From Horticoccus luteus (GTDB lineage Bacteria > Verrucomicrobiota > Verrucomicrobiia > Opitutales > Opitutaceae): a stretch of DNA of 32,000 nucleotides. Every line of letters starts with the position of its first letter. Position 1 is the first letter of the stretch. The translations under genes were made by a program, and so were the position numbers. This document shows positions 1-17,023 of this stretch, piece by piece. The stretch lies in NCBI RefSeq assembly GCF_019464535.1, contig NZ_CP080507.1, forward strand, positions 1,080,001-1,112,000, read 5' to 3'. Below the pieces are notes generated by a model. It saw only the letters and a list, made by a program, of their open reading frames with translations. It was not told the DNA's origin and ran no database searches.

Positions 1-2
1 CG

Positions 3-863
3 ACGACGGGCGGATTCGTGGGCTGGCTGGCGGGCGTGACGCCGAGCGGCATCGACGCGGTGAACTGGGTGTTCACAGGCGTGACGGCGCTGACTTTTGT
101 GGGGTTCTTCGTCGTGTTCACGCGGAAGGCGGAGGCGGAGAAGTTGCGGCCGGACCCCGCGGAGGAGCAACGTCTCGGGGCGACGAAGCCGCGGCTCGCG
201 CGGTTGAAGGAGTATTTCACGGAGGGACCGTTTCGGAATCCGAGATTCCTGTTTTTCATTTTCATGCTGCTGCCGGTGCGGACGTTGTTCGCGCACCAGT
301 GGCTGACGTTTCCGCAATATATTCTGCGGGCCTACGACAAGGACGTGGCGGATCACATGGAGTGGCTGGTGAACTGGATCAACCCGGGTGTGATCTTCAT
401 CGGCGTGCCGCTGACGGCGGCGCTGACGAAGCGGATCAACGTTTATACGATGATGATCGTCGGTTCGCTGGTGAGCGCGCTGCCGACGTTTCTGCTGGTG
501 GGCGGTCCGGATTTGACGCGGTTGATCACGTATTTCGTGGTGTTCTCCATCGGCGAAGCGCTGTGGTCGGCGCGATTTTTGGAATACGCGTCGGAACTCG
601 CGCCGCCGGGACGCGTGGCGCAATACATGGGCCTCGCGAACATCCCGTGGCTGCTGGCGAAGGGCACGACGGGCTTTTACTCCGGCTACATGCTCTCGCG
701 CTATTGTGCGGAAGGCGTGCCGCCGGCGCAGCAGCACACGGGCACGATGTTTTTGATCTACGGCTGCATCGCGATGTTGTCGCCGATCGGACTTTTCGCC
801 GCGCGGAAGTGGGTGATGGCGGGATTGCACACGGCGCGGGCACCCGCGCGCGCGGCAAATTGA
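3..863 (+). CDS. MFS-type transporter, POT/PTR2-like, C-terminal part (5' end lies outside the window)
   Basis: The reading frame is open from the window edge, with no stop before the GTG at 18. There are several hydrophobic TM-like segments. The motif GEALWSARFLEYASELAPPGRVAQYMG resembles the conserved POT/MFS helix. Third-codon positions are strongly G/C biased. Stop is TGA at 861-863. Confidence 0.6.
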   Translation, partial: TTGGFVGWLAGVTPSGIDAVNWVFTGVTALTFVGFFVVFTRKAEAEKLRPDPAEEQRLGATKPRLARLKEYFTEGPFRNPRFLFFIFMLLPVRTLFAHQWLTFPQYILRAYDKDVADHMEWLVNWINPGVIFIGVPLTAALTKRINVYTMMIVGSLVSALPTFLLVGGPDLTRLITYFVVFSIGEALWSARFLEYASELAPPGRVAQYMGLANIPWLLAKGTTGFYSGYMLSRYCAEGVPPAQQHTGTMFLIYGCIAMLSPIGLFAARKWVMAGLHTARAPARAAN

Positions 864-3618: not shown

Positions 3619-5976
3619 ATGGCTACTTCCGCTGACCCCAAGCACGTGGAGCCGTATATCGGCGCCGCGACCGTAATGAGGGAGTTCACCGCGCGCGCGG
3701 TGATTACCGGTGCGATCCTCGGGATGATCTTTGGAGCATCGTCCCTTTACCTGGTGTTGAAGGTCGGTTTGACCGTGAGCGCGTCGATCCCCGTCGCGGT
3801 GATTTCGCTGGCGCTGTTTCGCGGCCTGTCGAAGACGGGTCTGCGCGACGCGACGATTCTCGAACACAACATCACGCAGACGGCGGGCTCGGCGGGCGAG
3901 TCGCTCGCCTTCGGCATCGGCGTGACGATGCCGGCGATCCTGATCCTCGGCTTCGATCTGGAACTGACGCGCGTGATGCTGGTGGCGATGCTCGGTGGGT
4001 TGCTGGGCATCCTGATGATGATTCCGCTGCGGCGGGCGTTGATCGTGAAGGAGCACGGGACATTAAAATATCCCGAAGGCACGGCTTGCGCGGCGGTCTT
4101 GAAAGCGGGTGCCAACGCTGACGACAAGGCGCACGCCTCGCCGAGCGCGCAGGCGGAGATTCGCGCGGCGGCGGCGGCGGGGCTGGGCGCGGCGCCGGGG
4201 GCGAAGGCGATTTTCACGGGCTTCGGCGTGGGGTTGATTTACACGACGTTCAACATCGCGCTCAAGGGATGGAAGGATGTGTCGGAAAAAGTGTTTGGCG
4301 CGCCCTTCAAGGCGGGCTCGGTCAGCGTGGAAGTATCGCCGGCGCTGCTCGGCGTGGGCTACATCATCGGGCCGCGGATCGCGTCGATCATGTGTGCGGG
4401 CGGTGTGTTGAGCTACCTCGCGCTGATTCCGATGATCAAATTTTTCGGCGAGTCGATGACGACGCCCCTTGAGCCCGGCACGAAACTTATTTCCGACATG
4501 AGCCCGGGCGACATTCGCAGCGCGTATGTGCTCTACATCGGAGCGGGCGCGGTGGCGGCGGGCGGGATCATCAGTCTCGTGCAGGCGATGCCGACGATCT
4601 GGCACGGCTTGAAGGAAGGTCTGCGCAATCTCAACGGTTCGCGAGGGAGCACGCTGGCGCGCGACGAAACGCCGCGCACGGAGCGCGACCTTTCGCTGAA
4701 GTTTGTCGGCATCGGCGTGGTTTTACTGCTGTTGGCGATCACGTTCGCACCGTCGCTCGAAATGAATTTCCTCGGCGCGCTGCTGATCGTGTTGTTCGGA
4801 TTCTTGTTTGTGACGGTGTCGTCGCGGTTGACGGGCGAGATCGGCTCTTCGTCGAATCCGATTTCCGGCATGACCGTGGCGACGTTGTTGTTCACGTGCC
4901 TCATTTTTCTCCTCGTGGGCTGGACGGGGCGGACGGAATACGTGACGGCGCTTTCGGTGGGCGCGATCGTGTGCATCGCGGCATCGAATGGCGGGACGAC
5001 TTCGCAGGACTTGAAGACGGGCTTTCTCCTCGGGGCGACGCCGAAGCTGCAGCAGTGGGCGATCATGGCGGGCGCGGCGCTTTCGGCGGTGTGTCTCGGG
5101 CCGGTGCTGCTCGTGTTGAACGACGCTTCGACCGTTTACGTGCCGATCCACGAGATCGCGCCGGCGGGGCTGCATACGGACGTGGGAGCGTTGAAGAAGA
5201 CGGAAGGGCTCAAGGGACCGCAGGCGCGGGACGATGCGAACAGTTATCTCGTGTGGCAGAAAACGGACAATGTCGGCGCGCCCGAGGGACGTTATCTGGT
5301 GAATCAAAAGGGCGAGGCGGTGTGGCTCGTCGATCCTGGCATCAACGGGACGCACAATCGCCGGCCTGACGGCTCGCTGGTGCAAAAGTTCGATGCGCCG
5401 AAGGCGACGCTGATGTCGTATATCATCAAGGGGATTCTCGATCGGAAGCTGCCGTGGGCGCTCGTGTTGCTGGGCGTGATGATTGCCGTGACGATGGAGA
5501 TGTCGTTCGTGCCGGCGCTGGCGTTTGCGGTGGGCGTTTACCTGCCGTTGTCGTCGTCGTCGCCGATTTTCTTTGGCGGTTTCGTGCGGTGGCTGGTGGA
5601 TCGGCGGATGCGGAAGAAGGCCGCTTACGCGGCGATGACGCCGGCGCAGTTCACGGAGGAGACCGACAAGAGTCCCGGCGTGCTACTGGCGTCGGGTTAC
5701 ATTGCGGGCGGGGCGATCGCGGGCATCATCATTGCGATCATGCAAGGCGTGCCGTGGTTCGAAGGGATCAACGACGGGATCACCACCTGGTCGACGGCGC
5801 ACAATCCGTTTTTCGACGGGCCGAATTCGGATCTGTTGACGTTGGTGCCGTTCGCGGTGCTCTGCATTTTGCTATATTTGGTCGGCCGCGAAAAACTGCT
5901 GGCGGGGCGTCTGGCGGGTCCGATGTATGCGGGGCGGGCCGATGCCGAAGGCGAGCAGATCCCGCCCGGCGCGTGA
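3619..5976 (+). CDS. OPT-family oligopeptide transporter
   Basis: 785 aa and polytopic. The N-terminus (REFTARAVITGAILGMIFGASSLYLVLKVGLTVSASIPVAVIS) and later motifs (TGEIGSSSNPISGMTVATLL, SQDLKTGFLLGATP) are typical of bacterial OPT proteins, including a large extracytoplasmic loop. Confidence 0.8.
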   Translation: MATSADPKHVEPYIGAATVMREFTARAVITGAILGMIFGASSLYLVLKVGLTVSASIPVAVISLALFRGLSKTGLRDATILEHNITQTAGSAGESLAFGIGVTMPAILILGFDLELTRVMLVAMLGGLLGILMMIPLRRALIVKEHGTLKYPEGTACAAVLKAGANADDKAHASPSAQAEIRAAAAAGLGAAPGAKAIFTGFGVGLIYTTFNIALKGWKDVSEKVFGAPFKAGSVSVEVSPALLGVGYIIGPRIASIMCAGGVLSYLALIPMIKFFGESMTTPLEPGTKLISDMSPGDIRSAYVLYIGAGAVAAGGIISLVQAMPTIWHGLKEGLRNLNGSRGSTLARDETPRTERDLSLKFVGIGVVLLLLAITFAPSLEMNFLGALLIVLFGFLFVTVSSRLTGEIGSSSNPISGMTVATLLFTCLIFLLVGWTGRTEYVTALSVGAIVCIAASNGGTTSQDLKTGFLLGATPKLQQWAIMAGAALSAVCLGPVLLVLNDASTVYVPIHEIAPAGLHTDVGALKKTEGLKGPQARDDANSYLVWQKTDNVGAPEGRYLVNQKGEAVWLVDPGINGTHNRRPDGSLVQKFDAPKATLMSYIIKGILDRKLPWALVLLGVMIAVTMEMSFVPALAFAVGVYLPLSSSSPIFFGGFVRWLVDRRMRKKAAYAAMTPAQFTEETDKSPGVLLASGYIAGGAIAGIIIAIMQGVPWFEGINDGITTWSTAHNPFFDGPNSDLLTLVPFAVLCILLYLVGREKLLAGRLAGPMYAGRADAEGEQIPPGA

Positions 5977-6101: not shown

Positions 6102-6437
6102 TCAAGGCGCGGGCGGAATCGGCGGCGCGCTGTCGTCCATTTCCGGCCGCGGCGGGCGGTCGCCGTGGGGCGGGTGCGCGGGGCGAAATTCGTCCGGCGT
6201 AAGCTGGCCGTCGTGATTTTTGTCGAGCGTGAGCAAAGCGGTGGACGCGCGGGCGATTTCGTCGGCGGAAATTACGCCGTCGTGATTCGCGTCGAGTGCG
6301 ACGAGCAGCGGCGGCGGAGGCGGACGGTGGCCGTGGGCGGAGTCGGGCGGCGACGGCGGTGCGGCGTCGGCCGGTTGGGCGGGAAGCGCGAGCGCCAAAA
6401 GCGGCAGCGCGCAGAGAAGGCGAATAGGATTCTTCAT
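6102..6437 (-). CDS. Secreted small EF-hand pair protein with His/Pro-rich flanks
   Basis: Signal peptide MKNPIRLLCALPLLALALPAQPADA. There are two canonical 12-residue EF loops, DANHDGVISADE and DKNHDGQLTPDE. The flanks are HGHRPPPPP and HPPHGDRPPRPEMDD. An alternative GTG start at 6455 would add MRTSRR. Confidence 0.75.
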   Translation of the reverse strand: MKNPIRLLCALPLLALALPAQPADAAPPSPPDSAHGHRPPPPPLLVALDANHDGVISADEIARASTALLTLDKNHDGQLTPDEFRPAHPPHGDRPPRPEMDDSAPPIPPAP

Positions 6438-6461
6438 ACGCCGTGAGGTTCGCACGCGGAT

Positions 6462-6500
6462 GTTAAGCGTGGATGAACGGCGGTGCGGAAAATTGTTAAG
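6462..6500 (-). promoter_or_regulatory. Conserved element copy C (upstream of the EF-hand gene)
   Basis: The minus strand reads TCGCTTAACAATTTTCCGCACCGCCGTTCATCCACGCTTAACATC. The CTTAAC half-sites are 33 bp apart. The 17 nt GCTTAACAATTTTCCG... are identical to copy B. The element ends 24 nt before the ATG at 6437. Confidence 0.6.
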
Positions 6501-6542
6501 CGAGTGAAAAGCCAGCGCGGGAGGCGCCGCGCAGGCGGATGA

Positions 6543-8060
6543 TCAAGGCGCACGCGCGAGCTGGATCTCGGCGCCGAAGCCGTGAGGCGTGCGGTTGAAG
6601 AAGCGGACGTTGCCGCCGCACGCCGCGATGGAGGAACGCACGATCGCGAGGCCGAGGCCGGAGCCGCCCGTGTCTGCCGAGCGTGCTTCGTCGGGCCGGA
6701 AGAACGGTTCGCCGAGGCGGGCGAGCGCTTCGGGCGGCACGCCAGGTCCGTCGTCCTCAACGATGAGCTTGATGTGTCCATCGTCCGGCGCGGCGGAGAG
6801 AAAGACGTGACTGCCGGGGGCATAGCGCGCGGCATTGCGGAGGAGGTTGGCGACGGCGCGTTCGAGCAGCCGGGCATCCGCGAGCACGCGCAGGCTCGGC
6901 GCCACCTCGACGCGGCAGACGATAGCGGGTGCTTCGCGCATGTGAACGCGTTGCAGCAGCGGAGCGAGTTCCACCGGTGCGAGGCTGGCGGCGCGGGGCC
7001 GGAGCCCGGCCTGGGTGAACGCCATCAATTCGTTCACGAGCTGGCTCATGTGCTGCACCTCGTCGCGCACGTCGCCGAGGGGGGCGGTGGCGGCGGCGCC
7101 AGTGCGTTGCTCAAGAATTTCGACGGCGACCTGCAGGCGGCCGAGAGGTGAGCCGAGCTCGTGGGCGACGTCGCCGAGAAAACGTTTCTGGCCTTGTGCC
7201 TGAGTTTCGAGGCGGGCGGCCATGCGGTTAACGGACTCGCCGAGGTGACCAAGTTCGTCGCGGCGGCGGGTCGGAACGCGCGTGGTGAAATCGCCAGAGG
7301 CGATGCGTTCGGTGGCGGCGCCGAGCTGGCGCAGGGCGCGGCTGATGCCGCGGACGAGCGGGAGCCAAAACAAAATGGAAACCACCAGGACGCCGGCAGC
7401 GGTGAGGAACCACGGCGTGAGGTCGAGGAGGCCGAGGAGCGCGCGGAGCGAAGAGGAATGCACGACGAGACTCACGGGTTCGGGGCGGCCGTTGTGGTCG
7501 ACGGGCGGCATGCGCACGATGAGCCACCAGGCGGCGGGTTCGCCGACGTGAAACAAATGCCGGCCGCGCGCGAGATTCCGGGCGTTGGCGCCGGGACGAT
7601 CGGAGCGGAGGTCGGGCGGCGGAGCGGCGTCGTCGCGAGGAGGCGCATCGTCGTGGAACTCGTCGCGGTCGTGGCGGGGTGGCGGGCGCGAGCCAGGCGG
7701 TGGTGGCGGGAGACCGAGAGGCGGTGGAGGGCGGAGTAGTGCGATGACTTCGCGCGGGAGTTCGGGGGCGTGACCGGCCCGCGTTTCGCCGCTCTCGTTG
7801 GCGACAACCGCATAATCGAGTTGGTCGCTGAGCGGGAGGTGCGCGACGGCAGCGGTGGCGTCGTCGGTCGCGCGAAGTTCGGCGGCGAGGAGGTTGGCGG
7901 CGGCCTGGGCGCGTTCACCGGCGGGTCCGCGCACGAGAGCGTCGAGGCCCGAGGCGTCGGACGTGACGAACAGCACGCAAGCGGCGAGCGCGGCGACGAG
8001 GAGGAGGTTGAGCACGAGCCAGAGCGAAACCTTGAGCGAGAGGGGGAAGCGGACGTGCAT
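6543..8060 (-). CDS. Sensor histidine kinase, CpxA/EnvZ-like (TM - periplasmic domain - TM - HAMP - HisKA - HATPase)
   Basis: HAMP-like segment RALRQLGAATERIASGDFTTRVP...LGESVNRMAARLE. H-box FLGDVAHELGSPLGRL. N-box LLRNAARYA. G-boxes DDGPGVPPE and GGSGLGLAIV. I prefer the ATG at 8060 (MHVRFPLSLKVSLWLVL...) over the TTG at 8090. Confidence 0.85.
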   Translation of the reverse strand: MHVRFPLSLKVSLWLVLNLLLVAALAACVLFVTSDASGLDALVRGPAGERAQAAANLLAAELRATDDATAAVAHLPLSDQLDYAVVANESGETRAGHAPELPREVIALLRPPPPLGLPPPPPGSRPPPRHDRDEFHDDAPPRDDAAPPPDLRSDRPGANARNLARGRHLFHVGEPAAWWLIVRMPPVDHNGRPEPVSLVVHSSSLRALLGLLDLTPWFLTAAGVLVVSILFWLPLVRGISRALRQLGAATERIASGDFTTRVPTRRRDELGHLGESVNRMAARLETQAQGQKRFLGDVAHELGSPLGRLQVAVEILEQRTGAAATAPLGDVRDEVQHMSQLVNELMAFTQAGLRPRAASLAPVELAPLLQRVHMREAPAIVCRVEVAPSLRVLADARLLERAVANLLRNAARYAPGSHVFLSAAPDDGHIKLIVEDDGPGVPPEALARLGEPFFRPDEARSADTGGSGLGLAIVRSSIAACGGNVRFFNRTPHGFGAEIQLARAP

Positions 8061-8123
8061 GCGGAAGCGGGAGTGAGGCGAGCGTAGCAAGCGGCGGAGG
8101 AAAATCCCGCGGATTTACGCGGC

Positions 8124-8161
8124 CTTAACAATAAACCAGCCGACCCTCATGCAGGCTTAAC
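8124..8161 (+). promoter_or_regulatory. Conserved element copy A (upstream of the YHYH gene, in the divergent region with the kinase gene)
   Basis: The plus strand reads GGCCTTAACAATAAACCAGCCGACCCTCATGCAGGCTTAACTTGG. The CTTAAC half-sites lie at 8124-8129 and 8156-8161, 32 bp apart. The element ends 39 nt before the ATG at 8201. Confidence 0.6.
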
Positions 8162-8200
8162 TTGGGCGGAGTGAAATGGAGGCAACTTCTCCTCCCCATC

Positions 8201-10780
8201 ATGAAACTTCGTTTTTCGCTTGGTGTTTTTTGTGCCGGGTTCGCGGTCGTGCGGTCGGCGGATGCCGCCGTCAGCGATCCGCTGGTGACGAGTTGGTTGA
8301 CGGCGCCGACGGGCTGGTATGCGCGTCTGTATCAAAGTGACGCGGCGAAGGCGGCGGGCACGGCGGTGACGACGTGGAGCCGCGGTCAGACGAATCAAAC
8401 GGCGCCTGTTTACGCGGGTGTGATGCAGGTTTCGTATTCGACGGGCTGGGTCTATCTGCGCACGAGTGGGCTAGGTTACCACGTGATGGGGCCGTGGTAT
8501 CTCGACGCGGGGCACCTGCAGAATTTTCCGAACTTTCCTGGCAACACGGCGACGATTTATCGGTTTCCGCGGGTGCCGGCGGCGGCGGTCACCCACACGC
8601 TCACCAACGGCGGGGCGATCGGTTACTTCGTCGATGGCGTGGCGATGTTCGACAACCGCGACACGTTTTCCTACACGCATGCCTCGAGTCAGGACGCCAC
8701 GCCCGTGAATGGCCTGCACGGTGACGGCGTGTGGAATCGCGATGCGTTCGTGAACGAAGCGGTGACGTTCGATCCGGCGTATGCGCATCAGGCGGGATCG
8801 CAATATCACTACCACGCCAACACGCCGGCGCTGCGGCACGAGTTGGGCGATCATGTGGATTTCAATGCGAACACGCGGACGTATCAGGAAAGCAGTGCGG
8901 CCGTGACCGCGCACTCGCCGATCGTGGGTTGGGCGGCGGATGGCTATCCAGTCTATGGGCCGTATGGCTATGCGTCGGCGATGGACGCGGGCAGCGGCGT
9001 GCGGCGAATGATCTCAGGCTATGTGAAACGCGACGGCACGCGCGGCACGATCAACCTCGCGAGCACCGGGCGCACGACGTTGCCGGCGTGGGCGGCGCGC
9101 GCGCAAAGTCGCAGTGCATCGCTCGCGCCGACGGTGCAGGGACCGGCGGTGAACGGCACTTACACGCTCGGACATTACCTCGAAGACTACGAATATCTGG
9201 GCGATGTGGGTGGCACGCTGGGAACGAATTTCGATCTCGACGAATACAACGGCCGGGAGTGCGTGACGCCCGAATTTCCGCAGGGCACCTACGCGTATTT
9301 CTTGAGCATCGAGGACGACGGCACGCCGAAGTTTCCTTACATTCTGGGGCGCTGGTTCCGCGGCACACCGGCGGGAGGGCCGGTGACAGCGTTGAGCGAG
9401 ACGGTGACGGAATACGTGCGCGGCGCGCCGGCCGCGGCGATCGGAGTGATGGCCGGCGCGGCGGTGGGAGGCGGGGTGACGTTGAGTTGGAATTCGGCGG
9501 AAGGCGCGACGTATAAAGTCGAATCGTCGGCGGATCAGGCGGCGTGGACGACGCTGGCGGCGGCGGTCACGAGCGGGGGCGCGACGACGAGTTACGGGGC
9601 GCCGGTGGCGGGATATTATCGGGTGACGTTGGTGGCGATCGCCACGTATGACACGAACGGCCCGGTCGGCACGCCGGTGGGCACGGCGGGGATCGTGGCG
9701 TATGCGCCAACGGTAGCGCCGACGATCACCACGGCGCCGGTAAGCGCGACAGTGGCGGCAGGCGGAGAGGCGATGCTGGCCGTGGAAGCGAACGGGTCAG
9801 GGCCGCTCGCCTACCAATGGCGAAAGGACGGCGTGGATGTCGCGGCTGCGACAGAGGCGACGCTGACGATTCCGTTCGCGCAGACGAAAGACAGCGGAAG
9901 TTACGTGGTCGCGGTGAGCAACGCCGGTGGGGCGGCGACGAGTGCGGCGGCGGCGTTGACGGTGACGCCGACACCGACCGCAGCGACGGCGCGATTGATG
10001 AATCTCTCGACGCGCGCGCAGACGGGCGGCGCGACGGGCATGCCGATTGTGGGTTTCGTGCTGAGTGGGCCGGGAACGCGGACGATGCTCGTGCGCGCGG
10101 CGGGTCCGGCGCTGGCCAACTCGGGCGTGAGCGCACCGCTGGCGGATCCGAGTTTGTCGCTGGTCAGGGAGGGAACGCTGCTGGCGGCGAACGAGGATTG
10201 GAGCGCGAGCGACGCCGCGACGTTTACGGCGGCGGGCGCCTTCCTGTTTACGGCGGGCAGCAAGGATGCGGCGCTGGTGAGCGCGCTCGCGGGCGGGGTT
10301 TACTCGGCACCGGTGGGCACAGGCGGCGGCATGGGCGTGGCACTGGTGGAAGTTTACGATGCGGGCGGCAATGCGGTCGGACCGGCACTCACCAACCTCT
10401 CGAGTCGAACATTTGTCGGCGTGGGCGAACAGGTGGCGATCGCGGGTTTTGTGATCGGCGGCAGCGGGCCGATGCGACTGCTGTTGCGCGCGGCCGGTCC
10501 CGCGCTGGCGGCGTATGGCGTCGGCGATGCGCTCGTCGATCCGCGCGTGACGCTTTACGCGGGCAGCGCGGTGGTGGCGACGAATGACGACTGGAGCGAC
10601 AACGTGGATGCGGCGACGGTTGCGACGACGGCGACGGAGACGGGCGCGTTTGCGTTGGCGAGCGGAAGCAAGGATGCGGCGATGATCGTGAGTCTGCCGC
10701 CCGGCGTTTATTCGATGGTCGTGGCGGGCGCAGGCGCGAATACCGGCACGGCGCTGGCGGAAATTTACGTGGTGCCGTGA
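8201..10780 (+). CDS. Large secreted YHYH-domain protein with Fn3-like and Ig-like (I-set type) domains and two tandem C-terminal modules
   Basis: Signal peptide MKLRFSLGVFCAGFAVVRSADA. The YHYH motif (GSQYHYHAN, nt 8804-8815), HSPIVGWAADGYPVYGPYG and LDEYNGRE...FPYILGRWFRG fit the YHYH domain family. An Ig-like segment lies around 9719-9970 (LAYQWRKDG...DSGSYVVAVSNAGG). The ATG at 8201 is chosen for its signal peptide over the GTG at 8162. Confidence 0.75.
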   Translation: MKLRFSLGVFCAGFAVVRSADAAVSDPLVTSWLTAPTGWYARLYQSDAAKAAGTAVTTWSRGQTNQTAPVYAGVMQVSYSTGWVYLRTSGLGYHVMGPWYLDAGHLQNFPNFPGNTATIYRFPRVPAAAVTHTLTNGGAIGYFVDGVAMFDNRDTFSYTHASSQDATPVNGLHGDGVWNRDAFVNEAVTFDPAYAHQAGSQYHYHANTPALRHELGDHVDFNANTRTYQESSAAVTAHSPIVGWAADGYPVYGPYGYASAMDAGSGVRRMISGYVKRDGTRGTINLASTGRTTLPAWAARAQSRSASLAPTVQGPAVNGTYTLGHYLEDYEYLGDVGGTLGTNFDLDEYNGRECVTPEFPQGTYAYFLSIEDDGTPKFPYILGRWFRGTPAGGPVTALSETVTEYVRGAPAAAIGVMAGAAVGGGVTLSWNSAEGATYKVESSADQAAWTTLAAAVTSGGATTSYGAPVAGYYRVTLVAIATYDTNGPVGTPVGTAGIVAYAPTVAPTITTAPVSATVAAGGEAMLAVEANGSGPLAYQWRKDGVDVAAATEATLTIPFAQTKDSGSYVVAVSNAGGAATSAAAALTVTPTPTAATARLMNLSTRAQTGGATGMPIVGFVLSGPGTRTMLVRAAGPALANSGVSAPLADPSLSLVREGTLLAANEDWSASDAATFTAAGAFLFTAGSKDAALVSALAGGVYSAPVGTGGGMGVALVEVYDAGGNAVGPALTNLSSRTFVGVGEQVAIAGFVIGGSGPMRLLLRAAGPALAAYGVGDALVDPRVTLYAGSAVVATNDDWSDNVDAATVATTATETGAFALASGSKDAAMIVSLPPGVYSMVVAGAGANTGTALAEIYVVP
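9989..10384 (+). repeat. C-terminal module copy 1 of the YHYH protein (about 130 aa)
   Basis: Shares with copy 2: NLS(T/S)R, GFV(L/I)xGxG, L(V/L)RAAGPALA, L(A/V)DP, NxDWS, GSKDAA, GVYS and AL(V/A)E(V/I)Y. Confidence 0.7.
10385..10777 (+). repeat. C-terminal module copy 2 of the YHYH protein (about 130 aa)
   Basis: See copy 1. The two translated segments align by eye along their full length. Confidence 0.7.
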
Positions 10781-10802
10781 TGCGCGGCGGCGCGTCAACT
10801 GC

Positions 10803-11540
10803 TTACTCGGGGTCGTCGGGCGCGCGCATCATGTAGCCGGCAGAGCGGAGCGTGCGGATGAAGCGCGGGTTCTTGGCATCGTCGCCGAGCTTTTTGCGAA
10901 GCGAAGAAATGTGCACGTCGATGGAGCGGTCGAAAACGTCGTAGTTGCGGTCGCGGCATTCGTCGAGGAGGGCTTCGCGGGTTTTGACGCGGCCCCGGGC
11001 GCGCGCGAGGCTCGCGAGCAGGTCGAACTCCACGGGCGTGAGCACCAAGGGCGCGGCGTCGAGCACGGCGCGACGGGCGTCGAGGTTGACGCGCAGAGGG
11101 CCGACGGTGAATTCTGCGCGCGGTGCGTCGGCGGCGGCGATGGTGCGTTGGCTGCGACGGAGGACGGCGCGGAGGCGGGCGAGGAGTTCGCGCGTGGAAA
11201 ATGTTTTAGGCACGTAGTCGTCGGCGCCGACTTCGAGTCCGACGATGCGGTCCATCTCATCGCCGCGCGCGGTGAGCATCAGCACGGGAACGTCGACGCG
11301 CGCGCGGATGCGTTTCAGGACTTCAAAGCCGTCGAGGCCGGGGAGCATGACGTCGAGGATGACGGCGTGCCAGGACTCGGTGGTCGACGTGGCGCGGTCG
11401 ACGCCGTCGGGACCGGTGTGCGCGGCGGAGACATCGAAGCCGAGTGGCGCGAGATAGGCGGTGACGAGCCGGCAGAACTTGCGGTCGTCGTCGATCATGA
11501 GCACGCGGGTGCGGCCGGGATCGGGGGCGGCGTCGGTCAT
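10803..11540 (-). CDS. OmpR/PhoB-family response regulator, CpxR-like
   Basis: Receiver domain RVLMIDDD...ILDVMLPGLDGFEVLKRIR...MLTARGDEMDRIVGLEVGADDYVPKTFSTRELLARLRAVLRR. Winged-helix C-terminus LTPVEFDLL...DVHISSLRKKLG...IRTLRSAGYM. ATG at 11540. Confidence 0.9.
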   Translation of the reverse strand: MTDAAPDPGRTRVLMIDDDRKFCRLVTAYLAPLGFDVSAAHTGPDGVDRATSTTESWHAVILDVMLPGLDGFEVLKRIRARVDVPVLMLTARGDEMDRIVGLEVGADDYVPKTFSTRELLARLRAVLRRSQRTIAAADAPRAEFTVGPLRVNLDARRAVLDAAPLVLTPVEFDLLASLARARGRVKTREALLDECRDRNYDVFDRSIDVHISSLRKKLGDDAKNPRFIRTLRSAGYMMRAPDDPE

Positions 11541-11585
11541 GGGGGCGTTGTGCGGGAGGGCGCGGAGCGGCGCAACTTTTGTTCG

Positions 11586-11634
11586 CTTAACAGGGGCTTA
11601 ACAATTTTCCGAAGGCTCCTCATACGGGCTTAAC
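11586..11634 (+). promoter_or_regulatory. Conserved element copy B (upstream of the MbnP-MbnH gene, in the divergent region with the regulator gene), with an extra upstream half-site
   Basis: The plus strand reads CGCTTAACAGGGGCTTAACAATTTTCCGAAGGCTCCTCATACGGGCTTAACTGCG. CTTAAC lies at 11586, 11597 and 11629, giving spacings of 11 and 32 bp. The element ends 21 nt before the ATG at 11656. Confidence 0.6.
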
Positions 11635-11655
11635 TGCGAACGGCGAGAGTGAGGC

Positions 11656-13458
11656 ATGCGCTGGTTCGCGTTACTTGTGTTGCCGGTGGGGTCGTCGCAG
11701 GCGGCGGAGCTGACGATGCGGGTGGCGTTGCGGTGGGGCGGCGAATCGCTGGCCGTGCCGTCGACGGAGGTGCGCACGGACGCGGGGATGAAGTTGCGGG
11801 TGACGCGGCTGGCGGCGTTGCTGTCGGGCGCGGTGTTGACGAAGAGCGACGGGACGGTGGTGCGGCTCGACGGGCAATTTGGTTTTATCGACGCGGAGTC
11901 GGGGCGGCTGGCATGGACGTTGCGCGGCGTGCCGGCGGGCGACTATGCGGGACTCGGTTTTCAAGTCGGCGTGCCGACGGCGGTGAACCATGCCGATCCC
12001 GGACAGTGGCCGGCGGGGCACGCGCTGAATCCGCTGGTGGACCGGCTGCACTGGAGCTGGCAGGGCGGCTATGTGTTTTTCGCGCTGGAAGGACGCTGGC
12101 GTGACGGGGCGACGCCGGACACGGCGACGGAGCGCGGGTTTTCGTATCACGTGGCGACGGAGGCGCGTTTGATGAGGGTGAATTTCGTGGCGGCGTTTCG
12201 CGTGGAGGGTGCGACGACGGTCACATTGGCGCTGAATGTGGCGCGGGTTTTGGCGGTGCCGCAATGGGCGGCGGCAGGCAACGAGAGCACGCATTCGGCG
12301 GTCGGCGATGAGCTCGCGCCGAAGCTGGCGAACGCGTTCAGCCGCGGGTGGTTTTGGCTGGGCGCGGAGGAGGCGTCGCGTGCGGCGAACTCGGCGCGCG
12401 TCGATGAAGCAGCAGAAGCGCCGACGGCGGTGGCGGGCGATGCGAAGAGAGGAAAAGCCGCGGGCGCGAAGCCGCGGGCATTTGTGGTGCCGGCGGGGTT
12501 TCCGCAGCCGGATTTGCCGCAGGACAATCCGTTGACGGAAGAAGGGATCGCGTTGGGAAAAGTGTTGTTCAACGACCGGCGGCTGTCGGCGGGCGGGCAA
12601 CAGTCGTGCGCGAGCTGCCATGCGCCGGAGCGTGGGTTCAGCGACGACGTGGCGCGGAGCCGCGGCGCGAACGGCGGAGTGGGCGAGCGGAATGCGATGC
12701 CGTTGCTGAATCTGGCGTGGAGTCCGGCGTTTGCGTGGGACGGCGCGCAGCCGCGGATCCGCGATCAGGCGCGGGCGGCGATGTTGAATCCGCGGGAAAT
12801 GGCGGCGGACGAGCACGTGGTGCTGGCGACGCTCAATGGTGATGCGGTGTTGCGGGCGCGTTTCGCGGTGGCTTTCGGGCCGGGTGAAATCACGGCGGAC
12901 CGGCTCGGCCGGGCGTTGGAGCAATACTTGCTGACGCTGGTGGCGGCGGACTCAAAATTCGACCGGGCGATGCGGGGAGAGGAAACGTTGACCGCCGAGG
13001 AGCAGCGGGGATTTGAGTTGTTCGCGACGGAATACGATCCGGCGCGCGGGCGCAGGGGCGGCGATTGCTTTCACTGCCACGGCGGCGCGTTGTTCACCGA
13101 TTACGCGTATCGGAGCAACGGATTGGAGCGCGTCTCGGGCGATGCGGGGCGCGCGCGGGTGACGGGGCGCGAGGAAGATCGCGGGAAGTTCAAGACGCCG
13201 TCGCTGCGCAACGTGGCGTTGACGGCGCCGTATATGCACGACGGGCGGCTGAGGACGCTTGAGGACGTCGTCGCGCACTACGATCACGGCGTGCAGCGGG
13301 GGGCGTCGCTCGATCCCAATCTGGCGAAGCATCCGCTGGCGGGGATGCAACTGCCGTCAGCGGATCAGGCGGCGCTGGTGGCGTTTTTGCGGACGTTGAC
13401 CGAGAGCGCTTCGGTGGGCGCGGGCGGAGAACGGCGCGCGAGAGCGGCGGCGCGTTGA
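11656..13458 (+). CDS. Fusion protein: N-terminal MbnP-like domain + C-terminal MbnH/MauG-type di-heme cytochrome c peroxidase
   Basis: Short signal peptide. In the N-domain, VPAGDYAGLGFQVGVPTAVNHADP and NPLVDRLHWSWQGGYVFFALEG match the MbnP-family pattern as I recall it. An Ala/Lys-rich linker follows. In the C-domain the two heme motifs are CASCH (nt 12607-12621) and CFHCH (nt 13066-13080), with the CCP signatures GKVLFND, RNAMPLLN, WDG, FKTPSLRNV and APYMHDG. Confidence 0.7.
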   Translation: MRWFALLVLPVGSSQAAELTMRVALRWGGESLAVPSTEVRTDAGMKLRVTRLAALLSGAVLTKSDGTVVRLDGQFGFIDAESGRLAWTLRGVPAGDYAGLGFQVGVPTAVNHADPGQWPAGHALNPLVDRLHWSWQGGYVFFALEGRWRDGATPDTATERGFSYHVATEARLMRVNFVAAFRVEGATTVTLALNVARVLAVPQWAAAGNESTHSAVGDELAPKLANAFSRGWFWLGAEEASRAANSARVDEAAEAPTAVAGDAKRGKAAGAKPRAFVVPAGFPQPDLPQDNPLTEEGIALGKVLFNDRRLSAGGQQSCASCHAPERGFSDDVARSRGANGGVGERNAMPLLNLAWSPAFAWDGAQPRIRDQARAAMLNPREMAADEHVVLATLNGDAVLRARFAVAFGPGEITADRLGRALEQYLLTLVAADSKFDRAMRGEETLTAEEQRGFELFATEYDPARGRRGGDCFHCHGGALFTDYAYRSNGLERVSGDAGRARVTGREEDRGKFKTPSLRNVALTAPYMHDGRLRTLEDVVAHYDHGVQRGASLDPNLAKHPLAGMQLPSADQAALVAFLRTLTESASVGAGGERRARAAAR

Positions 13459-13472
13459 AACGGGAGAGGCAG

Positions 13473-13499
13473 CACGGCGCCGGGAAGAGCGGCGCCGTG
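13473..13499. terminator. Perfect 9-bp GC hairpin between the convergent MbnP-MbnH and FAH genes
   Basis: CACGGCGCC (13473-13481) pairs with GGCGCCGTG (13491-13499) across a 9-nt loop. There is no U-tract, so this is a tentative bidirectional terminator. Confidence 0.35.
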
Positions 13500-13516
13500 G
13501 GCGCGAACCGCGCGGA

Positions 13517-14317
13517 TCAGGCTTCGTTGACGACCGGATTGGTGAGCGTGCCGATCTTCCCGATCTCGATGCTGACGGAGTCGCCGGCTTTGAGCCAGAG
13601 CGGGGGCTTGGCCGCCATGCCGACGCCTTGGGGCGTGCCGGTGAGAATGACGGTGCCGGGGACGAGCGTGGTGCTGCCGCTCAGGTAGGCGATGAGCGCG
13701 GGGACGTCGAAAATCATGTCACTGGTGGTCCAATCCTGCACGCGCTGGCCGTTGAGAATCGTGGCGATCTTGAGCGTATTCGGATTGGTGATTTCGTCGG
13801 TCGTGACGAGGCACGGTCCAAGCGGGGCGAACGTGTCGAAGAACTTGCCGCGGCACCATTGGCCGCCGCCGAGCCGGATCTGGTGATCGCGGGCGGAGAC
13901 GTCGTTGGCGCAGGTGTAGCCGAGGACGTAGTCGAGGGCGTTTTCGCGGGAGACGTTTTTGCAAGGTTTGCCGATGACGACGGCGAGTTCGCATTCGTAG
14001 TCGACCTCGTGGCTGGCGAGGCGGGTGGGGATTTCGATCGGGTCGCCGGGGTTCTGCGTGGCGTTGATGCCTTTGACGAAGAGGATGGGGCGCTCGGGGA
14101 TTTTCGCGCCGGTTTCGGCGGCGTGCTGCCGGTAGTTGAGCCCGATGCAGAGGATCTGCGTGGGGGCGATCGGCGCGAGGAGCTTGCCGGGGCGCACAGG
14201 GCGATCGGTGACTTGGTAGGAGCCGAAGATGTCGCCGGAAATTTCGCGGGCGGAGCCATCGGGCTGGAGAGCGGCGTAGGCGGGGCCTTGGGGCGAGAGG
14301 TGACGAATGATTTTCAT
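13517..14317 (-). CDS. Fumarylacetoacetate hydrolase (FAH) family protein
   Basis: ILCIGLNYRQHAAE...PILFVKG...VDYECELAVVIGK...GYTCANDVSARD...GKFFDTF.P.GP and the C-terminal GDSVSIEIGKIGTLTN are typical FAH-fold motifs. It lies 30 nt downstream of the AraC gene on the same strand. Confidence 0.8.
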   Translation of the reverse strand: MKIIRHLSPQGPAYAALQPDGSAREISGDIFGSYQVTDRPVRPGKLLAPIAPTQILCIGLNYRQHAAETGAKIPERPILFVKGINATQNPGDPIEIPTRLASHEVDYECELAVVIGKPCKNVSRENALDYVLGYTCANDVSARDHQIRLGGGQWCRGKFFDTFAPLGPCLVTTDEITNPNTLKIATILNGQRVQDWTTSDMIFDVPALIAYLSGSTTLVPGTVILTGTPQGVGMAAKPPLWLKAGDSVSIEIGKIGTLTNPVVNEA

Positions 14318-14347
14318 GAGAGGGAAACTCAGCTAGCCGTGGGCGCG

Positions 14348-15193
14348 TCAGCGGGGCAAGGCCGCGTCGGGTCTTTTTTCGAGCCACGCGCGGGGCGGGT
14401 GGCCGAAGCGGGCGCGGAAGAGCCGATAGAAATGGGAGAGATCGCCGTAGCCGCTGGAAAAGGCGGCGCCGACGACGGAGTGACGTTGCGCGCGCAGCAG
14501 TTGCGCGGCGTGGGTGAGGCGGCGTTCGGTGAGTTCGGCGAGGAAGCTGCGGTCGGTAACCTCGCGAAACAGTTTGCTGAACTGGCGGCGGGAGAGGTCG
14601 GCTTGGGCACAGGCGCGTTCGAGGCTCCACGGTTCGTAGAAGGTGGCGGCGAGTTCGCGGGCGACGGTCTCGACGCGGCGGCGGGCGGCGTCGGAGGAAA
14701 GGCCGGCGGGCCGGCGGGCGAGGGCGACGAGCGCGTTTTCCGCGGCGGCGCGGATGACGATTTCACGGCCGAGGCGCACGCCGGCCTGCTCGACGACTGC
14801 GGCGCGCCAATATGTTTCGAATTGTTGGGCCCAGGTCCGGCCAGGGCGCAACGCGGCAGGACGTGCGGGAGTGAGTTTTTCCCAGAGCGAATCGAGGCCG
14901 GGGACACTGCGGACAAAATCGCGCGAGAAACACAAGAGCAGCAGCGTCGCGGGCTCGCTGTCGGTGATCTTGTGGCCCACGCCGGCTGCCACGCAGACGA
15001 CGGTGCCGGCGGGAGCGTGGACGGGCGTGGCGTCGCCTTTGATCGAACAGGCGATGCGGCCGTGGAGGACGTAGATGATCTTGTGAAACGGGTCGATGCG
15101 CTCCGCCATGTGGAAGCGCGGCCCGTGCACGCTTTCGACGAACGCGACGCCGTGAGGAGGGAGTTCGACGGGGATGGGGCGGGAGACGCTCAT
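14348..15193 (-). CDS. AraC-family transcriptional regulator (cupin sensor + double HTH)
   Basis: Cupin-like N-terminus HKIIYVLHGR...AGTVVCVAAGVGHK. C-terminal AraC HTH LSRRQFSKLFREVTDRSF...AAFSSGYGDLSHFYRLFRARFG. I prefer the ATG at 15193 over the TTG at 15208. Confidence 0.85.
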   Translation of the reverse strand: MSVSRPIPVELPPHGVAFVESVHGPRFHMAERIDPFHKIIYVLHGRIACSIKGDATPVHAPAGTVVCVAAGVGHKITDSEPATLLLLCFSRDFVRSVPGLDSLWEKLTPARPAALRPGRTWAQQFETYWRAAVVEQAGVRLGREIVIRAAAENALVALARRPAGLSSDAARRRVETVARELAATFYEPWSLERACAQADLSRRQFSKLFREVTDRSFLAELTERRLTHAAQLLRAQRHSVVGAAFSSGYGDLSHFYRLFRARFGHPPRAWLEKRPDAALPR

Positions 15194-15442
15194 GCAGGTG
15201 AAACTCAACTAAAATGCCCAATCTGCGAAGGTGGCCAAGCCCGATGTGCCAAGACGCACGAGGATTTGAATGGTAGGATGCTTCGCCTCATCGCCCAACC
15301 CCCCTTTTTCGCATGGCCGATTCTTTTCCTTCACCTGTCACTGGCACGGCGCCCGGTTTCGCGCGCGCCGTCGTGGCGTGGAGGTGGACCAGCCGCGCGA
15401 GGCGGATGAGCGCAGCGGTCGGAACATGGCGAGGTTGAACGA

Positions 15443-17023
15443 ATGAACCGACTGGCGGAACGACTCGGCGCTTCCAGCGACTTCCTGATCGGAGTCGAGT
15501 TGGTGTCCACGCGCGGAGGCCTTGATCAGCCGCACGCGGCGAAGACGTTGTCCCTGGCGCGCGACCTTGCTGGGGCGGCGAGCATCGACTGGGTGTCGAT
15601 CACAGACAACGCGGGCGGCAATCCGATGCTGGCTGCGTCCGCGTTGGGCGCACCATTGCGCGATGCCGGGCGGGAGGTGGTGATCCATTTGTCGTGCAAG
15701 GATTTTAATCGCAACGCGCTGGAGAGCGAGGCGTGGCGGCTGGCGAGCGAGGGGTTTCAGAACATTCTGGTGCTGACGGGAGATTATCCGGGGCACGGGG
15801 TGGGTGGGGGCGGCAAACCGGCGTTCGACATCGACGCGATCGGTTTGCTCACGCTGCTCGGCCAGATGAATGCCGGGCTGGACGTGACGCGCGAGGGGGC
15901 GAAGAAGGCGGTGCGACTCGAGCCGACGAAGTTTTTTCCGGGCGCGGTGGTGACGAATTTCAAGCTGCTCGAGAACGAAGTGATTCCGCAGTTGTTGAAG
16001 ATGGAGCGGAAGCTCGCGGCGGGCGCGCGTTTCCTGATCAACCAGATCGGTTACGATTCGCGCAAGGTGCACGAGTTGATTGCGTGGATGCGGCGGCGCG
16101 GTCACGGGCACGTGCCGTTGATTGGAAATGTTTATGTGCTCAACCCGGGCGTGGCGCGGGTCTTTCGCGCCAAGAAAATTCCGGGCGTGGTGATCTCGGA
16201 GGAGCTCGGCGATATCTGCGAGGCGCAGCGGGCGGCAGCGGACAAGGGCAAGGCGTTTTTCCTCGAACTGGCCGCGAAGCAAATCGCGATTTACCGCGGG
16301 CTCGGTTATCGCGGCGCGTATCTGGGCGGGGTGCATTCCGTGGCGGAGATCGAGCGCGTGCTGGAAATCGAGCGCGGGTTTGCGCCGGACGATTGGAAGC
16401 AGTTTGCGCGGGAGATCCAGTATTCGCGCCCGGGCGAATTTTTCGTGTTTGCGCGCGATGAGAACACGGGTCTCGCCAATCCGGAAAAGCTGGAAGCGAC
16501 GTATGCCGCTTCGCTGGGCGCGCATCCGCGGACCCAGAATGTCACGTTCACGTATCGATTTTCCAAGTTTGCGCACGAATTGATGTTCACGCCGGGCAAG
16601 GGCCTGTGGAAGGCGGGCGATGCGCTGTGCGCGAGCGCGAAGGATCCGCTGCAAGGGCCGGCATGGATGAGGGCGATCGAGCACACGAGCAAACGCCTGA
16701 TGTTTGACTGCCGCGATTGCGGTGACTGTTCCCTCTCGGAGATGGCGTTTCTGTGTCCAGAATCGTCGTGTGCGAAAAACCAACGCAACGGTCCGTGCGG
16801 GGGCACCCGGGATGGAAAGTGCGAGGTTTACGACTACGAGTGCATTTGGTCGCGCGCTTACGAGCGCCTGAAATTCGAGGGTCGCGAAGACCAGTTGCTC
16901 GCGCACACTCCCGCGGTGCAGGATCAGAGTCTGCGTTATACGTCGAGCTGGGCCAACACCTGGGCCCGCCGCGACCATCTCGCCAAACACCCTCCGGCCA
17001 GCCTCCCACCGATCAAATCCTGA
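15443..17023 (+). CDS. Methylenetetrahydrofolate reductase domain fused to an MTHFR_C (MetV-like, Cys-rich) domain
   Basis: The N-terminal roughly 300 aa carry MetF-like motifs: GVELVSTRG, VSITDNAGG, HLSCKD and ILVLTGDYP. The C-terminal segment is Cys-rich: FDCRDCGDCSLSEMAFLCPESSCAKNQRNGPCGGTRDGKCEV. That segment matches the MTHFR C-terminal/MetV-type domain as I recall it. Confidence 0.75.
   Translation: MNRLAERLGASSDFLIGVELVSTRGGLDQPHAAKTLSLARDLAGAASIDWVSITDNAGGNPMLAASALGAPLRDAGREVVIHLSCKDFNRNALESEAWRLASEGFQNILVLTGDYPGHGVGGGGKPAFDIDAIGLLTLLGQMNAGLDVTREGAKKAVRLEPTKFFPGAVVTNFKLLENEVIPQLLKMERKLAAGARFLINQIGYDSRKVHELIAWMRRRGHGHVPLIGNVYVLNPGVARVFRAKKIPGVVISEELGDICEAQRAAADKGKAFFLELAAKQIAIYRGLGYRGAYLGGVHSVAEIERVLEIERGFAPDDWKQFAREIQYSRPGEFFVFARDENTGLANPEKLEATYAASLGAHPRTQNVTFTYRFSKFAHELMFTPGKGLWKAGDALCASAKDPLQGPAWMRAIEHTSKRLMFDCRDCGDCSLSEMAFLCPESSCAKNQRNGPCGGTRDGKCEVYDYECIWSRAYERLKFEGREDQLLAHTPAVQDQSLRYTSSWANTWARRDHLAKHPPASLPPIKS

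Follow-up and report, generated by a model that had tools for sequence, protein, structure and literature searches.

The question raised by a 32 kb stretch of the Horticoccus luteus genome (Opitutaceae, Verrucomicrobiota; hereafter the window, in whose positions all coordinates are given) is why the two genes of a two-component system should stand apart among genes for secreted proteins: a YHYH protein, an EF-hand protein and a fusion of an MbnP-like domain to an MbnH/MauG-like di-haem enzyme. The genome is complete at 4.32 Mb and the organism is reportedly a cultured isolate. A reading of the DNA alone (the sequence-only reading) had proposed that these five genes form an undescribed unit, in which a CpxRA-like two-component system brackets its own targets and the secreted products share a theme of extracytoplasmic metal chemistry. 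It is suggested here that the locus is a self-contained regulon, run by its own two-component system, for handling an extracytoplasmic metal, copper being the likeliest, a reading to which belief and doubt are given in equal measure.

The open reading frame (ORF) listing, together with Pfam and NCBIfam scans, confirms five genes at 6102-13458, with the coordinates, orientations and domains that the sequence-only reading had given them (Table 1). The listing offers longer ORFs from TTG or GTG starts; ATG starts were used instead, since these are consistent with the signal peptides and with ortholog alignments. The kinase and regulator genes share a strand and are not an operon, the YHYH gene lying between them on the opposite strand. 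Both diverge from genes for secreted proteins, the kinase gene from the YHYH gene across a 140-bp spacer and the regulator gene from the fusion gene across a 115-bp spacer, and the EF-hand gene lies 3' of the kinase gene, beyond a terminator-like hairpin, with its own copy of a shared upstream element.

That element joins the three secreted-protein genes, as had been claimed: GCTTAAC occurs six times in the window and all six copies lie in the upstream regions of these genes, against an expected 1.2 and a count that none of 100 shuffles reached. In a scan of the window, CTTAACAATWWWMC matches three sites only, all of them secreted-gene promoters, and an independent repeat search also paired these promoters (repeats I1 and I12, I1 joining those of the EF-hand and fusion genes). 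The three upstream regions can be aligned over ~50 nucleotides (nt). The core is a direct repeat, TTTAC-N6-TTAAC, with half-sites 11 bp apart and a third TTAAC 32-33 bp downstream of the repeat (three helical turns), and the consensus over the window and its relatives reads TTTAC-N6-CTTAACAAT(T)3CC, ~12 nt, CACACA/TCATnC, then GGCTTAAC. Before the YHYH, fusion and EF-hand genes alike, the direct repeat overlaps a -35-like TTAACA; the copy at the fusion gene holds perfect GCTTAAC repeats at 11585, 11596 and 11628, and the copy at the EF-hand gene is an nhmmer match at 6512-6486 (E=0.034). The element was not found in the remaining ~24 kb of the window, no Rfam RNA family matches the element regions, and a sigma-70 consensus scan returned no standard promoter in the spacers, the promoter rules of this phylum being poorly known. 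In geometry the element corresponds to an OmpR-family operator, the nearest likeness being the BqsR box, which was experimentally defined as TTAAG-N6-TTAAG overlapping the -35 (PMC4358008).

Gene order in relatives had been set beforehand as the test on which the proposed unit might fail. When one genome per species was searched with the fusion protein, more than 536 relatives came up, and the best 80 of them served as loci; synteny was followed by tblastn of the five proteins and by unsupervised ORF clustering, layouts being counted in those 60 loci that have 4 kb or more of DNA upstream. Almost all of the 80 belong to the Verrucomicrobiota, and MbnP and MbnH are fused in every one. Across this phylum the YHYH and fusion genes are syntenic: a YHYH gene is present in 47 of the 60 loci and in 42 of the 60 it lies no more than 3.5 kb upstream of the fusion gene on the same strand. 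An OmpR-family regulator is found in 27/60, an ortholog of the window regulator in 18/60 and EF-hand genes in 13/60. Clustering over all 80 loci recovered the fusion (78 loci), the YHYH/EF-hand proteins (63) and the two-component system (32) and no further conserved family near the fusion gene, the next best occurring in 6/80; none of the genes that flank the five in the window is conserved beside the cassette. The conserved core is thus the YHYH and fusion genes (with the two-component system), and this much of the five-gene unit stands, whereas the EF-hand gene is only an accessory. The split order kinase / YHYH / regulator / fusion occurs in 15 loci, all of them Opitutales, and regulator orthologs (74-83% identity) are divergent from the fusion gene in 15 loci. 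Outside this group (L036, L045, L065 and L080 are examples) the orthologs of the regulator and kinase are encoded in a single operon that diverges from [EF-hand]-YHYH-fusion. The window layout is therefore a family-level rearrangement in which the regulator gene was moved, along with an operator copy, to the side of the fusion gene. These loci record how a regulator gene left its kinase, the operator copy going with it, a case of rewiring of a two-component locus.

The element travels with the same families. Run over 1.36 Mb of related loci, a profile built on it gave 28 matches at E<0.1, all within cassette regions; about 20 can be assigned to a downstream gene (YHYH, EF-hand, fusion or the gene after the kinase), and the other ~8 lie in the same cassette regions without a called downstream ORF. 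The element-bearing gene after the kinase encodes an extracytoplasmic function (ECF) sigma factor in two Opitutaceae loci, L001 (~1-431, minus strand) and L003 (3801-4581, minus strand), and a secreted Dioxygenase_C-like protein in L004; the sigma factor suggests a regulatory cascade missing from the window. Over the 80 loci the element is present in 15 of the 23 with the orthologous regulator as against 3 of the 57 without it, and in none of the nine that carry a different two-component system. This co-occurrence (Fisher p = 4e-8, uncorrected for shared ancestry) supports, and is not proof of, binding of the element by the regulator and, with the conservation of the element upstream of the same families, it fits the claim that the two-component system brackets its own targets. 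A sulfatase gene in L045 carries the same control element.

Table 1. Features of the locus, in window positions, and the basis or content of each
Feature	Position	Strand	Basis or content
Secreted EF-hand protein, 111 amino acids	6102..6437	-	Likely ATG at 6437; signal peptide; Pfam EF-hand_5/EF-hand_1 above cut-off
Element upstream of EF-hand gene	6462..6512	-	Degenerate half-site TTTCAC, CTTAACAATTTTCC, GCTTAAC 33 nt downstream
Terminator-like G+C hairpin with T-run, after kinase gene	6513..6532	-	Promoter/terminator scan, consensus match only
Sensor histidine kinase	6543..8060	-	First transmembrane helix, periplasmic domain of ~180 amino acids, second transmembrane helix, HAMP, HisKA, HATPase_c; Pfam
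Element in kinase/YHYH divergent spacer	8112..8161	+	ATTTAC-N5-CTTAACAATAAACC ... CTCATGC ... GGCTTAAC; nhmmer E=0.00098
Secreted YHYH protein	8201..10780	+	Signal peptide, YHYH domain, FN3/Ig-like region, two C-terminal repeats
OmpR/PhoB-family response regulator	10803..11540	-	Receiver and winged-helix Trans_reg_C domains; Pfam
Element in regulator/fusion divergent spacer	11585..11634	+	GCTTAAC, 11 bp, GCTTAACAATTTTCC ... CTCATAC ... GGCTTAAC; nhmmer E=0.0001
Secreted MbnP-like + MbnH/MauG-like di-haem fusion	11656..13458	+	Pfam, NCBIfam

The fusion protein is 100% identical to Horticoccus luteus K0B96_04335, annotated as hypothetical. It consists of an MbnP-like domain (residues ~18-204), a linker and an MbnH/MauG-like di-haem domain (residues ~288-585). 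The first belongs to PF20243 (MbnP; 97.2 bits, threshold 27), and its motif LHWSWQGGY, which holds the WxW, is invariant in 44 sequences together with H132, H165, H213 and D218. As a single sequence the MbnP-like domain has no PDB match; as a profile it reaches 7L6G weakly (E=0.0077), with the WxW aligned. The second domain scores 166.7 bits against PF03150 (CCP_MauG), has invariant haem motifs CASCH and CFHCH, and belongs to the MbnH/MauG branch; its closest solved protein is MbnH itself (6E1C; sequence 1.8e-43, Foldseek 2.1e-15), and the predicted structure of the fusion protein bears out the MbnH-like fold. The characterised MbnP binds copper via a kynurenine that MbnH makes from the WxW Trp, and the copper sites of MopE and CorA are likewise formed by two His and a kynurenine (PMC11951088).

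The constant neighbour of this fusion, the YHYH protein, is a member of PF14240 (133.4 bits, threshold 25; residues ~25-390). Its signature reads QYHYHA, and H174, H181, H183 and H216 are invariant in the homolog alignment, as are certain Asp/Glu residues. PF14240 is distributed over bacteria, algae and phage tails. By single sequence or by fold (Foldseek) the domain has no PDB match; the AlphaFold model, of moderate quality (predicted local distance difference test 63, predicted template-modelling score 0.72), matches only other YHYH proteins in a viral library, which places the domain in phage structural proteins. In the window protein an Ig I-set domain follows PF14240, and two tandem C-terminal repeats of ~125 residues (window 9995-10777, residues ~600-859) share the pattern NLSxR...GFV(L/I)xG...RAAGPAL...DP...NDDW... 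and have no Pfam or PDB match. Similar repeats stand alone in large ORFs of relatives, for example L003 1221-3080 and L011 1-6933. Proteins in which YHYH is fused to EF-hands occur in related loci and make up 11 of the 120 top homologs of a short YHYH protein; the EF-hand and YHYH genes of the window are therefore taken to be functionally linked. The EF-hand protein itself has two canonical Ca2+-type loops, DANHDGVISADE and DKNHDGQLTPDE, flanked by Pro-rich, His-containing segments (HGHRPPPPP, HPPHGDRPPRP). Lanmodulin, and with it a lanthanide reading, was considered and rejected: the score is 16.7 bits against a cut-off of 135, and the loops, DANHDG and DKNHDG, do not have the Pro that lanmodulin carries at loop position 2.

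All kinase and regulator domains exceed their Pfam cut-offs and belong to the OmpR/PhoB family, and the acidic pocket, the D of ILDVMLPG and the H-box His are visible in the regulator and kinase sequences. In NCBIfam the kinase scores highest against BaeS (164 bits), followed by Legionella CpxA (160 bits), all matches lying under their cut-offs, with 149 bits against CpxA PRK09470 (cut-off 486); the regulator scores 202 bits for OmpR and 188 for CpxR, both under cut-off, that of CpxR PRK10955 being 341. The nearest solved structures to the regulator are RegX3, MtrA, PhoP and BaeR. The small co-regulated gene, an EF-hand protein, has no match to the CpxP/LTXXQ family. Of the earlier label 'CpxRA-like', a resemblance at family level holds; membership does not, every curated equivalog cut-off being missed and OmpR and BaeS scoring as high or higher, and the pair is best described as generic members of the OmpR family. 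The periplasmic domain of the kinase carries a low-complexity insert rich in Pro and Arg, and also in Asp and Gly (residues ~120-175, window 7400-7700, PPPPLGLPPPPPGSRPPPRHDRDEFHDD...), whose length varies among orthologs from about 10 to more than 150 residues; neither the sequence nor the ortholog alignment contains an RExxE motif in the periplasmic segment. The Pro-rich tails of the EF-hand protein are similar to this insert.

A role in heavy-metal handling is backed by the contexts in which the cassette occurs in other lineages, which give independent contextual support to the metal theme of the sequence-only reading. Kinases beside the cassette there have cztS_silS_copS as their best family (L039 282.5 bits and L046 246.8 bits, cut-off 292.55), and the regulators in such loci have cztR_silR_copR. 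A CusA/CzcA-family heavy-metal resistance-nodulation-division (RND) pump (1090 bits, cut-off 701) immediately precedes the fusion gene in L072 (6749-9868) and L078 (6867-9935) and adjoins a CopRS/CzcRS-like two-component system in L039 (2485-5667). A short canonical YHYH gene ends an operon of ZnuA (PF01297) and an ABC-3 permease (ZnuB) in L085 (6136-8927) and L086 (1393-4184), an arrangement seen on one strand on at least 12 contigs, which suggests that YHYH is tied to zinc or manganese uptake. Copper is the best guess for the metal, by analogy with MbnP, with zinc and calcium as further candidates.

Several observations weigh against this reading. The MbnP-like domain scores 39.1 bits against TIGR04052 ('four-Cys motif protein'; cut-off 140), contains no Cys at all, so that the four-Cys motif is missing, and apparently has a Leu in place of the Met that stands beside the WxW in 7L6G; it is a distinct subfamily. 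The di-haem domain reaches 220.2 bits against TIGR04039 (MbnH), under the cut-off of 362.85. The window's two-component system falls outside the heavy-metal class, with 148.6 bits for the kinase against TIGR01386 (cut-off 292.55) and 159.5 bits for the regulator against TIGR01387 (cztR_silR_copR; cut-off 279.2). No His, Cys or Met is conserved in the periplasmic domain of the kinase in the ortholog alignment, and with no conserved metal ligands in this domain the kinase sequence gives no pointer to the signal. The missing correction for shared ancestry in the co-occurrence test counts on the same side. In the literature the YHYH domain is termed 'enigmatic'; a Zn site is predicted in it, and the prediction for its role is that of a hydrolase that requires Zn and belongs to phage tails (PMC7824862). 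Finally, YHYH recurrently adjoins sulfatases, PQQ_2 beta-propeller proteins, Dioxygenase_C-like secreted proteins and EF-hand proteins (L081 6370-9119, L088 3761-7936, L089 1-9541, L087 1-14768, L045 ~12165-13703, L036 11868-14257); sulfatases are very numerous in the phylum and their presence may be due to chance, and the sulfatases, PQQ_2 propellers and EF-hand proteins point to Ca2+ or glycan biology as much as to copper.

The gene content, the shared site and its conservation, the synteny and the gene fusions are observed here; regulator binding, signal, metal and kynurenine formation are inferred, as signal and metal already were in the sequence-only reading. In the proposed mechanism, the membrane kinase would sense a periplasmic cue, which may report either excess or shortage of the metal, and phosphorylate the OmpR-family regulator, a dimer of which would bind TTTAC-N6-TTAAC (11-bp period) at the -35 of the three promoters. 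The third TTAAC, which lies close to where transcription probably starts, may adjust the output. The two-component system probably also regulates itself, because two of the sites sit in divergent spacers, one of which also serves the kinase gene and the other the regulator gene. Once the three secreted products were exported, the di-haem MbnH-like domain could oxidise the WxW Trp of the attached MbnP-like domain to kynurenine, which with the invariant His/Asp residues would complete a metal site within the fusion protein. At the cell surface the YHYH protein, on its large scaffold of Ig domains and repeats, would add another metal site, rich in His, and the EF-hand protein would bind Ca2+ or serve as an accessory factor to YHYH.

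Parts of this scheme can be set beside known systems. One is the MbnP/MbnH pair of Methylosinus trichosporium OB3b (7L6G, 6E1C), in which a MauG-like di-haem enzyme is likewise teamed with a Trp-rich periplasmic partner that carries a WxW, a pair conserved well beyond methanobactin producers (PMC3621798). In contrast to the methanobactin operons, here both are fused into one polypeptide, the module has no methanobactin genes or TonB-dependent transporter, the MbnP-like domain is without the four-Cys motif, falls under the TIGR04052 cut-off and has its own invariant His/His/His/Asp set, and the constant partner is the YHYH protein. MopE/CorA of methanotrophs is a secreted, copper-regulated protein that binds copper with a kynurenine and two His and whose gene lies next to that of a di-haem peroxidase (MauG-like/CorB) (PMC11951088, PMC3621798); it differs in fold and sequence family, is not fused to its partner and has no YHYH partner. 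CopRS/CusRS/CzcRS systems and CusA/CzcA pumps, which adjoin the same YHYH-fusion cassette in other Verrucomicrobia, follow the same logic of a periplasmic metal sensor that governs periplasmic metal proteins, whereas the window system is another OmpR-family lineage, with ~41% identity to the regulators beside the cassette there, and the window module has no efflux pump or multicopper oxidase.

Two further systems resemble the regulatory side. BqsRS/CarSR of Pseudomonas aeruginosa is of the OmpR family, recognises a 5-N6-5 direct repeat with a TTAA core over the -35 and activates secreted or periplasmic proteins (PMC4358008). The half-site here is TT(T/A)AC and not TTAAG, a third repeat lies 32 bp downstream, the window kinase is without RExxE, none of the five proteins has a PepSY domain and the regulator and kinase genes are not in one operon; the window system falls outside this group and operator geometry alone is common to the two. 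CpxRA-CpxP of Enterobacteria supplies some of the better kinase and regulator matches and likewise controls a gene for a small periplasmic protein. The CpxR box is GTAAA-N5-GTAAA, which the other strand of the element, GTTAA-N6-GTAAA, recalls. However, the window scores lie far under the equivalog cut-offs, the small protein is an EF-hand protein and not CpxP, the repeat period is 11 bp and not 10, and the targets are metal-type proteins.

There are other possibilities for what the cassette does. It may serve envelope stress and cell-wall remodelling, a Cpx/Bae-like system inducing a YHYH hydrolase of wall or capsule polymers, a periplasmic di-haem peroxidase and a Ca2+-binding stabiliser. This would suit the place of BaeS/CpxA and OmpR/CpxR/BaeR among the best matches of the kinase and regulator, the prediction of YHYH as a tail-associated hydrolase and its presence in phage structural proteins, the element before the ECF sigma factor in L001 and L003, and the sulfatases that often adjoin YHYH. 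However, it is judged unlikely: no Cpx/Bae equivalog cut-off is reached and a CpxP-like gene is missing; the reading does not explain why YHYH and the fusion are so tightly paired across the phylum, nor the contexts with CopRS/CzcRS-like systems, CusA/CzcA pumps and ZnuA-ZnuB; and the conserved WxW speaks for modification of the partner domain by the haem domain rather than for peroxide detoxification.

Also improbable is a calcium-responsive regulon analogous to CarSR, in which external Ca2+ would be sensed and secreted Ca2+-binding or Ca2+-dependent proteins controlled. The EF-hand gene does lie within the regulon, but it is its least conserved member, and although YHYH+EF-hand fusions recur and the operator geometry resembles the BqsR/CarR box, neither a Ca2+ site nor an RExxE motif can be recognised in the kinase. 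In other places YHYH clusters with EF-hand proteins and with enzyme families that depend on Ca2+ (sulfatases, PQQ-type propellers), yet MbnP/MbnH chemistry, heavy-metal two-component systems and heavy-metal RND pumps have no known role in calcium handling.

A role in iron handling is very doubtful; here a system like BqsRS would respond to Fe(II) and govern a periplasmic apparatus, based on a haem peroxidase, that oxidises or captures iron. Di-haem peroxidases and His-rich periplasmic proteins are present in some iron-uptake clusters, which would favour it, as would the resemblance of the operator to the BqsR box; against this, RExxE is missing from the kinase, PepSY genes, an iron transporter and a Fur-type context were seen in none of the 80 loci, and the MbnH-like domain is closest to MbnH and MauG, which are protein-modifying enzymes. 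Hardly credible at all is the absence of a dedicated regulon, with the shared sequence a general promoter or leader feature and the adjacency without functional meaning, for even though the spacers returned no standard sigma-70 promoter, in a phylum where little is known of promoter rules, the element is confined to cassette regions in the window and, at E<0.1, in the related loci searched (1.36 Mb), tracks the regulator ortholog and matches no Rfam family, and synteny and gene fusions are conserved.

The reading of the locus as a metal-handling regulon raises a further, more tentative possibility: that YHYH represents a novel kind of extracytoplasmic domain, one that binds or processes metal, and that it works with the MbnP-MbnH fusion as a phylum-wide, methanobactin-independent copper system of the Verrucomicrobiota. 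In that system YHYH might be another substrate of the di-haem enzyme or exchange metal with it, and a lineage-specific two-component system would exert control through a three-site operator. Two-component regulons, the MbnP/MbnH pair and EF-hand proteins are known parts; the combination in which they are conserved alongside YHYH seems, like the fusion, the operator and the split layout, to be undescribed, in line with the sequence-only reading, as no prior description of the combination as a unit, and no paper tying YHYH to MbnP or copper, was found in the literature that could be searched. The locus would give a first functional context to a widespread domain for which the only published idea found is that of a phage-tail hydrolase, and it bears on the role of MbnP/MbnH outside methanobactin operons. 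The co-regulated set with its operator, the YHYH+EF-hand fusions and the heavy-metal neighbours in other lineages make this a concrete, testable hypothesis.

The genes on either side of the five are seemingly unrelated to them, their translations having been judged by eye without a domain scan: upstream, at 3619-5976 (plus strand), lies a large ORF resembling a multi-pass membrane transporter, and downstream, at 13517-17023, are a fumarylacetoacetase-like gene, an AraC-like regulator and a methylenetetrahydrofolate-reductase-like gene. Over the whole window (1-32000) G greatly exceeds C on the plus strand whatever the gene orientation, with GC skew positive in every 1-kb bin (0.05 to 0.27) and cumulative skew rising monotonically.

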